IMG/VR virus record: IMGVR_UViG_3300025840_000011
DNA from: a virus
Strand: one strand, 5' to 3'
Length of the DNA: 64,000 nucleotides
Shown here: piece by piece, positions 47,540 through 51,467 of the stretch
Layout: each line of letters starts with the position of its first letter
Numbering within the stretch: the stretch's first letter is position 1
Notes under the pieces: model-generated
Told to the model about the DNA's origin: nothing
Database searches by the model: none
The model's input: the letters and a program-made list of their open reading frames with translations, nothing else
Translations under genes and position numbers: made by a program

Positions 47540-49839
47540 GTTATAGGTAATGCGCCCGCCTGATTGTTCGTCAAGAAGGCGGCGTTTACATCCCACACAC
47601 TTGGAATGACTGCCGCTTGAGTACTGTTATTATTGACTTGTGTTGACGAAGAAGACCCACCAACGTTAGTCTGCATAATAATAGGATTACCACCACCCGC
47701 ACCCATATTCCCTGCATTTGCAAGTTGAGTTCCCGCCATGGTTCTTGATGTTGTGCCAGGCGCTTGTGGAGAACCTGGCGCTGGTATACCTCTCGCGTTC
47801 ATTGATGCCAATCGTTCTCTTCGGTATTCAGCCGTTCCTTCTTGAGTGCCTTTAGACACATGCATGTGATCCATGTGACCACCAGTTCTCCACATCACAC
47901 TATAACCTGCGGTTTCTAATTTATCGCGTAGTACATCGAAGACCGCAGCCTGTTCGGGATTGTCTGCCTCAACATAACGTTCATCATTAGGACCGACAAA
48001 GTTAATATCTAATGCGTCACCCCTATAGTGTCTGGAGTTTTCACCATGTGTTCCAACTTCACCAAATGCCTCGTGGCCAGATACATGTAGTCCTTTTCCC
48101 TGCAACCATTCACCCAAAGCAACAATATCGTCTGATGGTGGTAAACCTGACATGGGTTCTTCTGGTTCTTGACCGGATGTCCCTAATTGAGGGCGAGGTC
48201 GGTTACGAGTCCTACGTGAGGCTGTCTGAGGTCTCTCAGGCGGAGGAGGAGGTGGTCGAGTTTCGGTATCTACTGCATCATTAGTCTCTGGTGGATTATC
48301 TCTCATTGCGGCAGTATCAGTTTCATCATCCCACCAATCCGTCAATGCATCCCATGCATCTGAAAATATATTGCTTACCCAATTTTTAATATCTTCCCAA
48401 AGTTGGGTAGCTGAATCCACCATACTTCCCCATTTGTCGGGTTCATTTTCCCACCAGTCAATTACTGCATCATAGGCGCCCATAAACGACTCACCTATTC
48501 TGCCCGGAATTCCCATAAGATAATCAAATGTCTCTGATGCATACGTAAATAGGGATTCTTTAAATGCGGTCATTGTCTCATCCAACCACGCGAAGAGACT
48601 AGGGAGAACGTCAGTGAATACGTAGGTCAGACCTCCCCATATCCCCTTCAATCCCCACTTAACCATGTCTGCGAGATTCATGAACATGGTCTGTGCAAAT
48701 TGACCCATCCAAGGTATGAACTGGGTGAAGATATCTTTCAACGCTTCGATTGGTGAACTGAATAGTTTACGAACCCAATCAAATATGGATGCTATCATTC
48801 CACTAATACCGCCAGGCATTAGTTCGTTGATTCTATCCGTAACAGAACCAAGACCAATCTTGTCCAGTATCCACTTCATTCCGTCTTGCAGTAAATCACC
48901 AATAGTACCGAAGAAACCAACGAACACACCTTTGAGACCTTCCCAAGTTGCACTTAGAATTCTGGTAAAGATGTTCATATCAGATTCGGCGGTTCTTTGC
49001 CAGTCACCCAAGAATCCGGTGAAGAAGTCGAAGAGTGAAATAATAATTTGAATAGGCCAAAGAAGTTTGGTGAATACACCTTTCACCAAAGACATGATCT
49101 TATTACCGCCAGCCTTGAAAAGATCATCACCAACACCAATGGTAGCCTTAAGTGTGTCTCCTAGAAAACCAAATATTTTTCCAAAAAAACCAAACACTTT
49201 TTGGACGATAGAGTTTGTGAACGAACCAAGTTTGGATGCATTCCACCATTTGATAATCGCATTGAATGGTCTTGCTATGAAACCAAATATCTTCCCTATA
49301 TTAGAAACCATTCTTTCGGCAAAATTCATTTTCTTGAATTTACCGTTGGCCTCTCTAAGGTTGTATCTTAATGATCCATCTAGGGCTTTGAAGAAACCAC
49401 CTCTAAACGCTTTGTAGAAATTTGTTATAGATCTCTGGAGACCTTTCGTTAGATTCGTTATACCAGCTACAGAAAATAGTCTAGAAAACGCCAGTTTAAC
49501 AGCACCGAAAAACCGTTGCACCATGTCTTTGATTCTTCTTACGGTCTCGCCTATCACAGCGCCAAGACCCAAAAGGATACCACTAAAGGATTTGTCTAAT
49601 TTTATTTCAGGTGCTTTGAAAATAGGTGCTTTTTCTTTTTTCTTGTCTCGTCGATCTTCTTCGTTCTGCAAACGATCCTGTTTTATCTCTGCGAGAATCT
49701 CACGCATAGTCTTATTGAGATCAGAGGTATTCTTCTCTGTCCCTTCTTGACTTCTTTGGAGCGCTTGGTTACGGTTATTATTTTCTTGACGCATCAAGTC
49801 AATAACATTACCCAAACCACCTATTGTTGCTTCTGCCAT
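47536..49839 (-). CDS. Tape measure/baseplate hub protein (gp29-like) with C-terminal M15-like peptidase domain
   Basis: Long amphipathic W/F-rich repeats; SRHYRGDALD...HMDHMHVS; downstream of gp26/gp51. Confidence 0.7.
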   Translation of the reverse strand: MAEATIGGLGNVIDLMRQENNNRNQALQRSQEGTEKNTSDLNKTMREILAEIKQDRLQNEEDRRDKKKEKAPIFKAPEIKLDKSFSGILLGLGAVIGETVRRIKDMVQRFFGAVKLAFSRLFSVAGITNLTKGLQRSITNFYKAFRGGFFKALDGSLRYNLREANGKFKKMNFAERMVSNIGKIFGFIARPFNAIIKWWNASKLGSFTNSIVQKVFGFFGKIFGFLGDTLKATIGVGDDLFKAGGNKIMSLVKGVFTKLLWPIQIIISLFDFFTGFLGDWQRTAESDMNIFTRILSATWEGLKGVFVGFFGTIGDLLQDGMKWILDKIGLGSVTDRINELMPGGISGMIASIFDWVRKLFSSPIEALKDIFTQFIPWMGQFAQTMFMNLADMVKWGLKGIWGGLTYVFTDVLPSLFAWLDETMTAFKESLFTYASETFDYLMGIPGRIGESFMGAYDAVIDWWENEPDKWGSMVDSATQLWEDIKNWVSNIFSDAWDALTDWWDDETDTAAMRDNPPETNDAVDTETRPPPPPPERPQTASRRTRNRPRPQLGTSGQEPEEPMSGLPPSDDIVALGEWLQGKGLHVSGHEAFGEVGTHGENSRHYRGDALDINFVGPNDERYVEADNPEQAAVFDVLRDKLETAGYSVMWRTGGHMDHMHVSKGTQEGTAEYRRERLASMNARGIPAPGSPQAPGTTSRTMAGTQLANAGNMGAGGGNPIIMQTNVGGSSSSTQVNNNSTQAAVIPSVWDVNAAFLTNNQAGALPIT

Positions 49840-49843
49840 TGGT

Positions 49844-50041
49844 TTATCTCATTTTGGATTCTTGTTGTCTACGTTCATTCTCTTCTTTAATCCACTCAAC
49901 CAATAATGTAACATAAATTTCCCTTTCCCATGGCATCATCATTTCAAGTTCTGTTAGACTGTAATGATGATGTTGCATTAATGAAAAGTTGGTCTTAAAA
50001 TAATTGACCAAATTATCATGAGAAAGGTTTATGATAAAAAA
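49844..50041 (-). CDS. gp51: gp51-like baseplate hub assembly protein (first ATG 49978; probably reached by -1 frameshift)
   Basis: LSHDNLVNYFKTNFSLMQHHHYSLTELEMMMPWEREIYV. Confidence 0.75.
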   Translation of the reverse strand, partial: FFIINLSHDNLVNYFKTNFSLMQHHHYSLTELEMMMPWEREIYVTLLVEWIKEENERRQQESKMR

Positions 50042-50736
50042 TCCGACATTCCCCTTAACATCTGTTTGTTTTCTTCCCCACACTTATTACAGGTATATTC
50101 TGCATTGTGTCTCAGTGCGGGTAGACTCTCAAGGTAGTCTGCCAGTTTCTTAAACTGACCCTGCGTCATTGACTCAAGAAACTCATTGATCTCTGTCTTG
50201 GAAACTTCGTCCGCCTCGATCCTTTCGTCTCCTGTGATGACGGCCTGAATACACGCACCAACCATAGCGAATCCAATTTCAATTTCCTTTCCGGTGAAAT
50301 TGACTTTACTGACATGTTCGTACATTGGGTATCTCATTTCAACACTAACACCGTCACTCAGTTCAATAACATTTTCGGTATTGGGTGCTTCTACTTTAAC
50401 GGAGGAGATGTCTATCTCATACTCGTTCTGTGCATCACATGATTCACATCTCAACAAAATAGTAGATACCTCACCAACTGACTTTGACCTAATCTGAGTG
50501 AACAGATACTCAATGTCAAAGGTTGTCAACTTCTTTCCCTGAAAACCTTCACTCGTGATACACGCATCGATTGTATCTACAATCGCACGTAGTGCCTGTT
50601 TCTGGTCTTGAGTCTCCATTGCCATCATCAAGACCTTTTCTTCTTTAACCAAGTAAGGTCTGAATGAAACTTTTTTCCCCGTCGAGGGAATCGTACATTC
50701 ATACGATGGACTGGTGTTTAACTTTGGTAATGCCAT
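50029..50736 (-). CDS. gp26: Baseplate hub assembly protein gp26
   Basis: MALPKL...FRPYLVKEEKVL...DIEYLF..IRSKSVGE; two CxxC. Confidence 0.88.
   Translation of the reverse strand: MALPKLNTSPSYECTIPSTGKKVSFRPYLVKEEKVLMMAMETQDQKQALRAIVDTIDACITSEGFQGKKLTTFDIEYLFTQIRSKSVGEVSTILLRCESCDAQNEYEIDISSVKVEAPNTENVIELSDGVSVEMRYPMYEHVSKVNFTGKEIEIGFAMVGACIQAVITGDERIEADEVSKTEINEFLESMTQGQFKKLADYLESLPALRHNAEYTCNKCGEENKQMLRGMSDFLS
50035..50041 (-). other. Slippery heptamer U-UUU-UUA (candidate -1 frameshift site)
   Basis: gp26 ends GAT TTT TTA TCA TAA; -1 frame continues into gp51. Confidence 0.65.
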
Positions 50737-50759: not shown

Positions 50760-51467
50760 TTAAAATACTCTATCAAGTATCCCTGATAGAATTGAACCAC
50801 CAAAACCGCTTGTTGGTCCGTCTGCTTCTTTTGACCGCCAGTCTCTATAAGACAACTGTACGGTAAACTCCGTAATCTGATCAGTCTGATCGCCCCCTAA
50901 CTGTATCGCATTGACAGTGACCGGAAACGCCTCAAGTAATTTTATGTGACGAATAACCGCAGCGTCTTTTCCAAAACCGAAGTCAATCTCACCCTGTTGG
51001 AAGTCTGGGTTACCGTCAAAAATCCTCGCACGGATCGATGAGGGTATACTATCTAGGAACCCTAATTGTTTCTTAAATAGACTAAACGCATACCCTTTCT
51101 GAAGTTGTTTGATGTCGATGTCCTGAACGTAATCTTTGTAATATTGTATTTGATTTGATTCCTGATCGTAACACGCCTTCATCCACTCATCGAAGTAGGA
51201 TGTAATTTTGTGATCGTTCATGACATAGAAGGTTAAGTTCAAATCTACGGTTGCGAACCCGTTGACAACTTTTCTAAGAACTGTACCTACCTGTTGATCC
51301 TGTGTCATCATCTGTCTGCCAGGCAGTTCTGTTGATTTACAGATGACGTTAATGTCTCTCGAACTCATACCAAACTTACTGGGTAGGACAATCTCGAACA
51401 TGTTCGACATTGCGAACCCTTCGCTCTTACTCGCGGCCGCCTTGAGTTCTTCTATACTAGTAGCCAT
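50760..51467 (-). CDS. Tail tube initiator gp54-like (tube fold)
   Basis: CKSTELPGR, FDEWM, LLEAFPVTVNAI, FTVQLSYRDW. Confidence 0.7.
   Translation of the reverse strand: MATSIEELKAAASKSEGFAMSNMFEIVLPSKFGMSSRDINVICKSTELPGRQMMTQDQQVGTVLRKVVNGFATVDLNLTFYVMNDHKITSYFDEWMKACYDQESNQIQYYKDYVQDIDIKQLQKGYAFSLFKKQLGFLDSIPSSIRARIFDGNPDFQQGEIDFGFGKDAAVIRHIKLLEAFPVTVNAIQLGGDQTDQITEFTVQLSYRDWRSKEADGPTSGFGGSILSGILDRVF

Follow-up and report, generated by a model that had tools for sequence, protein, structure and literature searches.

In the window analysed here, a 64,000-nucleotide stretch of an uncultured marine T4-like phage lineage (IMG/VR record IMGVR_UViG_3300025840_000011), a gene related to gp26 of phage T4 is followed in another frame by a short ORF resembling gp51, which raises the question of whether these are two genes or one gene that is read in two ways. 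The answer that we reach, with a probability of roughly 0.83, is that the short 'gp51' ORF belongs with the gp26-like gene to a single recoded tail assembly chaperone gene, expressed through a -1 ribosomal frameshift; a short and a long protein would very probably be made from it by ribosomes slipping on UUUUUUA. The initial annotation of this DNA had proposed such a frameshift from the letters of the window: its observation of the gp26-gp51 junction is confirmed, and its interpretation is supported with the exception of a downstream hairpin.

Layout of the locus

The order of the genes on the minus strand, as assigned from PHROG profiles, is tube-like gene, chaperone and tape measure gene (Table 1); the equivalents of the tube gene in PX29 and Mosig are annotated as gp54 tail tube initiator. 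The gp26-like protein matches PF12322 with a score of 203 bits against a curated cut-off of 24.5, and its closest match among the gp26 proteins of GenBank phages is 42% identical. The gp26-like ORF ends GAT TTT TTA TCA TAA, with a T run at 50041-50036, so that the U-UUU-UUA previously claimed for 50041-50035 at the end of gp26 is present at exactly these positions and in phase. Starting at 50083, the -1 frame stays open as far as its stop at 49846-49844; it reads ..FFIINLSHDNLVNYFKTNFSLMQHH.., and from the heptamer on it is IINLSHDNLVNYFKTNFSLMQHH... As in known frameshifted pairs, the second ORF lies in the -1 frame at the end of the first and has no start of its own, and the two together are placed between a tail tube-type gene and a tape measure gene, the start of the latter (49839) coming 4 nt past the stop of the extension. 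The heptamer, its phase, the two frames, the missing start and the homologies described below are all read directly from the DNA.

Table 1. Features of the gp26-gp51 locus, with positions in the window.
Feature	Positions	Strand	Evidence or remark
Tail-tube-fold gene, in the position of a gp54-like tube initiator	50760..51467	-	phrog_45 'tail tube', E 2.9e-34
gp26-like gene, predicted short form (TAC-N), 235 aa	50029..50736	-	PF12322, E 5.4e-60; phrog_150, E 2.6e-63
Purine-rich AGGGGA, 9 nt 5' of the heptamer; possible SD-like 5' stimulator	50050..50055	-	
Slippery heptamer U_UUU_UUA, phased as X_XXY_YYZ in the gp26 frame and separated from the stop by one sense codon	50035..50041	-	
Zero-frame stop TAA; possible 'shifty stop' stimulator	50029..50031	-	stimulator role putative
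-1 frame extension, 63 codons plus stop	49844..50035	-	phrog_634, E 1.8e-27
Weak local hairpin, probably no functional stimulator	49981..50019	-	-9 kcal/mol
Tape measure gene, 767 aa	47536..49839	-	phrog_4200, 58, 1272 and others, E 5e-14 to 2e-4

Two side observations concern the tape measure gene and the DNA before it. In Melnitz, Mosig, Rhizobium AF3 and Caulobacter Cr30 the extension is separated from the tape measure gene by one or two small ORFs of unknown function (1725-2054 in locus L001, 1697-2099 in L002, 2866-3294 in L009 and 2872-3120 in L010). In the C-terminal third of the window's tape measure protein, after a proline-rich linker, residues ~597-662 (window 47854-48051, minus strand) carry the signature of a LAS/M15-type zinc peptidase, S-x-H-x-x-G-x-A-x-D followed by H-x-x-H-x-H. 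Peptidase_M15_4 is matched by this C-terminal region with an E value of 0.026, below the cut-off, and Hedgehog N-domains, which share the LAS fold, are matched weakly (E 0.24-0.6). Judging from the signature, the peptidase-like region may be a wall-cutting domain that is delivered with the tape measure.

The slippery heptamer among relatives

We compared the gp26 loci of 16 GenBank phage records and 80 IMG/VR loci (the latter 45-74% identical). A downstream extension is present in 92 of the loci, which with the window make a set of 93 sequences. This set covers Kyanoviridae, the KVP40 group, Aeromonas PX29, Rhizobium AF3, Caulobacter Cr30 and a Nitratidesulfovibrio phage besides the 80 IMG/VR loci, and falls into 12 clusters at 50% identity and 40 clusters at 70% identity. 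All 93 sequences with this layout have an in-phase T_TTT_TTN, and the gp51-like part is always in the -1 frame, which is what the initial annotation had proposed to look for in an alignment of gp26 3' ends. The zero-frame stop follows the heptamer after 0-1 codons throughout the set of 93, with the exception of pelagiphage Mosig (8 codons); counted by cluster (n = 40), 23 have a distance of 0 codons, 16 of 1 codon and one of 8 codons.

The residue before the run is variable (Asp, Ser, Asn or Ala), and its codon ends in T throughout (GAT, AGT, TCT, AAT, GCT); the first Phe of the heptamer is encoded by TTT in every relative, and the last codon is free (TTA, TTG, TTT, TTC). With the codon background taken from the same genes, in which TTT accounts for 70% of Phe codons and GAT for 72% of Asp codons, the joint probability of this choice given the amino acids is ~1e-13.8 over the 40 clusters (≤70% identity), and it would stay below 1e-3 if calculated with the 12 clusters at 50% identity. 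Within the window itself the heptamer is only suggestive, as in-frame T_TTT_TTN occurs 7 times in 16,514 codons of long ORFs, the one at 50041-50035 being the only one that adjoins a stop; the weight of the evidence comes from the relatives. Taken at the level of sequence, the comparative evidence for a frameshift is strong.

Phage T4 as a natural control

The extension matches phrog_634, 'baseplate hub assembly catalyst', over 63 residues, and also positions 232-277 of the 282 positions of phrog_150 (E 1.4e-5), of which the gp26 part covers 5-232. It aligns with residues 204-244 of T4 gp51 (BLASTP E 2e-4) and is homologous to the C-terminal ~45 residues of that protein. T4 gp51 (249 aa) matches in its residues 1-201 the whole PF12322 profile (E 7.7e-55) and spans positions 13-280 of phrog_150, its residues 147-246 matching phrog_634; T4 gp26 (208 aa) ends at position 235 of phrog_150, and the two T4 proteins align with each other at E 1e-5. 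On these alignments T4 has the short form and an in-frame long form as two paralogs, and gp51 is the equivalent of the predicted frameshift product. The label 'gp51' that the window's ORF had been given is therefore sound as a statement of homology and too broad in its extent, since only the last ~45 residues of T4 gp51 correspond, while the whole protein is a gp26 paralog plus the extension in frame. Reading the locus as a frameshift explains why the resemblance of cyanophage 'gp51' to the T4 protein is limited to the final fifth of the latter.

T4, Krischvirus and an Acinetobacter phage lack both the downstream extension and the heptamer and have the gp51 paralog instead. The codons that correspond to the heptamer are GAG TTC TTT in T4, AGT TTC CTT in Krischvirus and AGC TTT ATG in the Acinetobacter phage; T4 gp26 ends GAG TTC TTT GAG TTA CTA TAA, so that Phe-Phe is retained in codons that are not slippery. 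Gene 25 comes after gene 26 in T4, where gene 51 is divergently transcribed in the order 51-27-28; the gene layout of Krischvirus and of the Acinetobacter phage is the same. The two-paralog arrangement is not that of the window: a second PF12322 (gp26/gp51) copy was not found within the 64 kb, a count that covers the window only, and with one PF12322 gene and no second copy in this stretch the window phage would have to recode to obtain a long form. T4 with its two genes is the derived exception, and recoding is the rule in the family.

The -1 frame extension and its missing start

In the relatives the extension is conserved from the first codon past the heptamer, with the consensus L-I/V-x-L-S-H-D-x-L-v-N-y-Y-K-T-N-F-x-L-M-Q-H-H-x-Y-S-L...P-W-E-R-E-I-Y; L4, H6, L27, P35, W36 and E37 are invariant, and S5, L9, N16, F17 and L19 are at least 90% conserved. 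Across 30 sequences the mean column identity is 61% and a period-3 pattern runs in the -1 frame, clear signs of purifying selection. AlphaFold2 run on 30 extension sequences gave a three-helix domain (pLDDT 86; helices 6-22, 27-31 and 35-62). No other part of the locus is as strongly conserved in sequence. A Pfam search of the extension found no family at threshold, and weak matches to Stealth_CR2, which fell below threshold, were regarded as spurious.

In a blastn search of a phage collection, the DNA similarity to cyanophage, pelagiphage and Methylophilales phage genomes was confined to the junction and the extension (70-74% identity), that is to positions 684-867 of 49844-50736 (about 50053-49870), the body of gp26 being undetectable as DNA.

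An unlikely alternative is that the locus encodes two separate proteins, with the extension translated as a small ORF from ATG 49978 (44 aa), TTG 50011 or GTG 50083, perhaps coupled to the termination of gp26. This is how the relatives are annotated in GenBank, and in some lineages an ATG does overlap the gp26 stop: KVP40-like phages, AF3, Cr30 and ACG-2014f have it at codon +2 or +3 together with the heptamer, and Vibrio phage K483 (L095, 2600-2900) has it in TAATG, at the start of an extension-like ORF, with no heptamer, its gp26 ending TCA CTT TTC AAG TAA. Some lineages may produce the extension as a free peptide, and the lineage of K483, to judge from its sequence, may make it as a separate, translationally coupled peptide. 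In the window, however, none of the three candidate starts is preceded by an SD-like sequence, while the start of gp26 has TAGGAG, and seven conserved residues (L4, S5, H6, L9, N16, F17, L19) as well as the whole of helix 1 in the AlphaFold2 model lie upstream of ATG 49978 (codon 20), in agreement with what the initial annotation had said of the gp51-like segment and its want of a clear SD. Some relatives have Ile, Leu, Gln or Ala in place of the Met encoded by ATG 49978, and several relatives lack any start codon within reach. In L064, L076, L078 and L086 a -1 frame stop directly abuts the heptamer; the first start codon of any kind is an ATG at codon +32 in L064 and L076, a TTG at +18 is the lone start before ATG +32 in L078, and L086 has two GTGs (+1 and +14) and no ATG before +32. 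In the Nitratidesulfovibrio phage (L011) the whole extension ORF is without a start codon. Two separate proteins would also leave the invariant codon choice at the heptamer unexplained, and in T4 gp51 the same domain is fused in frame.

Fold of the short form

A sequence search of the gp26-like protein against solved structures gave nothing significant, and Foldseek with the AlphaFold2 model of the short form (pLDDT 82) gave no match at E ≤ 0.001, the highest probability in its list (0.92, with E 0.55) being that of 2ob9. A structural search with this model over 48,161 chains returned as the top three 3fgx (Z 8.3, 89 aligned residues), the HK97 protein 2ob9 (Z 7.3, 85 aligned) and YqbN, 3klu (Z 6.9), the next match having a Z of 5.2; all three align to residues 1-97 of the gp26-like protein and cover most of each target. 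These Z values are moderate, and their weight comes from the fact that the three best matches are all tail assembly chaperones, as which YqbN and the HK97 protein are treated in the literature (PMC9603447). The model thus assigns to the gp26-like N-terminal domain the fold of a tail assembly chaperone.

Beyond this domain the gp26-like protein contains a zinc ribbon formed by two CxxC pairs, C97/C100 and C216/C219, which are 116 residues apart, with a domain of ~110 residues inserted between them; none of the four cysteines varies among 32 homologs. In the structural search small zinc-ribbon proteins were aligned to residues 92-232 with a Z of about 3, and the ribbon accounts for the names TFIIS or RNA polymerase subunit M-like that JGI gives to several homologs. 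No in-frame fused homologs were found among close relatives, the best 120 of 5,045 protein matches all being 232-238 aa long.

Proposed mechanism

In the mechanism that we propose, most ribosomes would terminate at TAA 50031-50029 and release the 235-aa short form. In a minority, tRNA-Phe and tRNA-Leu would re-pair on UUU UUU after a backward slip of one base on U_UUU_UUA, and translation would go on with AUC AUA AAC, which would add the 63-residue three-helix domain; we infer both the slip and its efficiency. The predicted long form has 234 + 63 = 297 aa and a junction ..SDF(L/F)IINLSHD.., in which ..SDFLIINLSHDNL.. would correspond to tandem ribosomal slippage after decoding of the Leu, and ..SDFFIINL.. 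to P-site slippage or to transcriptional slippage. By analogy with lambda G/GT and with T4 gp26/gp51, the two forms would cooperate on the tape measure protein, whose gene comes next, while the hub and tail tube are being initiated, and neither would be retained in the virion.

The slip could in principle occur in transcription instead, with RNA polymerase adding one U on the T run so that the fused protein is read in one frame. The signal is a pure T homopolymer, and bacterial RNA polymerase slippage usually needs runs of 8-9 or more to be efficient. A run of T8 is found in 14 of the 40 clusters, which may slip in this way; the window and 24 of the clusters have only T6, which favours ribosomal slippage. 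The T run, moreover, is never out of X_XXY_YYZ phase. The poly-T of T4-like TAC-N genes is also named a -1 frameshift slippery sequence in PMC12846349. On balance we regard transcriptional slippage as improbable.

That the T run simply reflects conserved D-F-F/L residues in an AT-rich genome, the -1 ORF being an unexpressed, decaying remnant, accounts for part of the run (the motif is conserved as protein, and the window, at 44% GC, has 68 T6/A6 runs besides the in-frame heptamers in long ORFs) and is nonetheless effectively refuted by the extensions that have no start, by a codon choice with P about 1e-14, and by an extension that is under purifying selection, folds confidently in AlphaFold2 and belongs to the essential gp51 of T4.

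Possible stimulators of the shift

The initial annotation had suggested that UUGGUC and GACCAA, downstream of the heptamer, could form a stimulatory hairpin or pseudoknot. The pairing itself exists, UUGGUC 50011-50006 and GACCAA 49994-49989 being the core of a hairpin whose outer stem starts 15 nt, and whose core starts 23 nt, past the heptamer; folded in 100 nt it has a z-score of -0.63, and in 60 nt one of -2.2. As a stimulator the hairpin did not hold up: RNAalifold gave 0 consensus pairs downstream of the heptamer in 35 relatives, 67% of the cells are paired in these relatives versus 64% in shuffles, and 11 of the 12 hairpin pairs fail to form in 6-23 of these 35 relatives. A conserved 3' hairpin or pseudoknot was rejected on these grounds, the structure being weak in the window and barely above shuffles among the relatives.

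On the 3' side, the adjacent zero-frame stop is the one feature that is conserved. Weiss et al. are said to have found in 1987 that stops beside slippery runs raise shifting ('shifty stops'), and it is possible that the stop next to the slip site acts in this way. On the 5' side, a block RRRGG is present at -14..-10 in 38 of the 40 clusters; a purine stands at position -12 in every case, also in the 5 of 5 fourfold-degenerate codons in which any base would be synonymous. The dnaX shift is stimulated by an SD-like element 10 nt upstream, and the block is suggestive of a 5' stimulator of this kind, a role that is confounded by an invariant Gly codon and that we do not claim.

We would put forward, tentatively and at clearly less than even odds, that the family uses a minimal, structure-free and termination-coupled -1 site, made of U_UUU_UUN, a stop within 0-1 codons and perhaps the purine block 9 nt 5'. 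If so, the ratio of short to long form would be set by the competition between release factor and slippage, and one cassette could work in SAR11, cyanobacteria, Vibrio, Rhizobium and Desulfovibrio; K483, with its ATG-coupled separate peptide, and T4, with its duplicated gene, would then be independent escapes from recoding.

Consequences for annotation

In the GenBank records examined the extension is either left uncalled or entered as a truncated 'gp51 / hub assembly catalyst' ORF that begins at an internal ATG or TTG, and none of them has a joined or slippage CDS for it. By record, it is unannotated in ACG-2014b (L005, 1476-1655), starts at an internal Met in Melnitz, DSL-LC02, S-T4 and S-RIM8, and at a TTG in PX29; further coordinates of the extension are 1564-1707 in L001, 1576-1698 in L004 and 2714-2887 in L007. 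Because there is no joined CDS in the records, hundreds of T4-like phages, marine ones and others, have no entry in protein databases for the ~297-aa long form, which the sequences predict to be a version of an essential tail assembly chaperone. The chief value of the finding is this correction of annotation; it opens no new question, because the concept, as far as the accounts cited below convey it, was published in 2022.

Comparison with known systems

Vladimirov, Gautam and Davidson (Virology 2022, 566:9-15, PMID 34826709) identified the tail assembly chaperones of T4-like phages; as their study is summarised in PMC10885494 and PMC12846349, T4-like TAC-N genes have poly-T -1 slip signals, and some T4-like phages have one short gene and one longer fusion gene. 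According to these summaries the gene family and the idea are the same as for the window, so that the gp26-gp51 frameshift of T4-like phages was already published and the window phage is one more example of it. A literature search on gp51 slippery sites and on programmed ribosomal frameshifting in cyanophages found nothing relevant.

As chaperones, T4 gp26 and gp51 are both required to assemble the hub, and the virion does not contain gp51 (Leiman et al. 2010, PMC3004832, Table 2). T4 resembles the window in that gp26, which has PF12322 only, is the short form, and that gp51 has PF12322 and a C-terminal part matching the window's -1 ORF; it differs in that these are separate, divergently transcribed paralogs without the heptamer, and that the tape measure gene, gene 29, does not adjoin the pair.

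The slip signal of HIV-1 gag-pol is U_UUU_UUA and that of E. coli dnaX is A_AAA_AAG. The window has the identical heptamer of the former, and its purine-rich, SD-like block 9 nt upstream recalls the 5' stimulator of the latter; unlike both, its family has no conserved 3' hairpin or pseudoknot.

A conserved -1 frameshift of tail assembly genes, with gpG/gpGT of lambda, was reportedly described by Xu, Hendrix and Duda in 2004. The window pair differs from that of lambda in that the protein has no match to Pfam TAC or Phage_tail_T, the short form matching only PF12322, that it is about twice as long, with the added zinc-ribbon domain, and that the heptamer of its family is U_UUU_UUN rather than G_GGA_AAG, with the stop within 0-1 codons. 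It shares with lambda a predicted -1 slip late in the first ORF, giving two nested products, and the position between tube-type and tape measure genes, and with the HK97 and YqbN chaperones the modelled fold of its N-terminal domain. The G/GT-type pair that the initial annotation had seen ahead of the tape measure gene is supported by the phase, the codon choice, the constant -1 frame, the conserved residues that precede any start codon, the T4-type control and the chaperone fold. On sequence and model together, the window pair is not a member of the TAC or Phage_tail_T families and yet would work as G and GT do.
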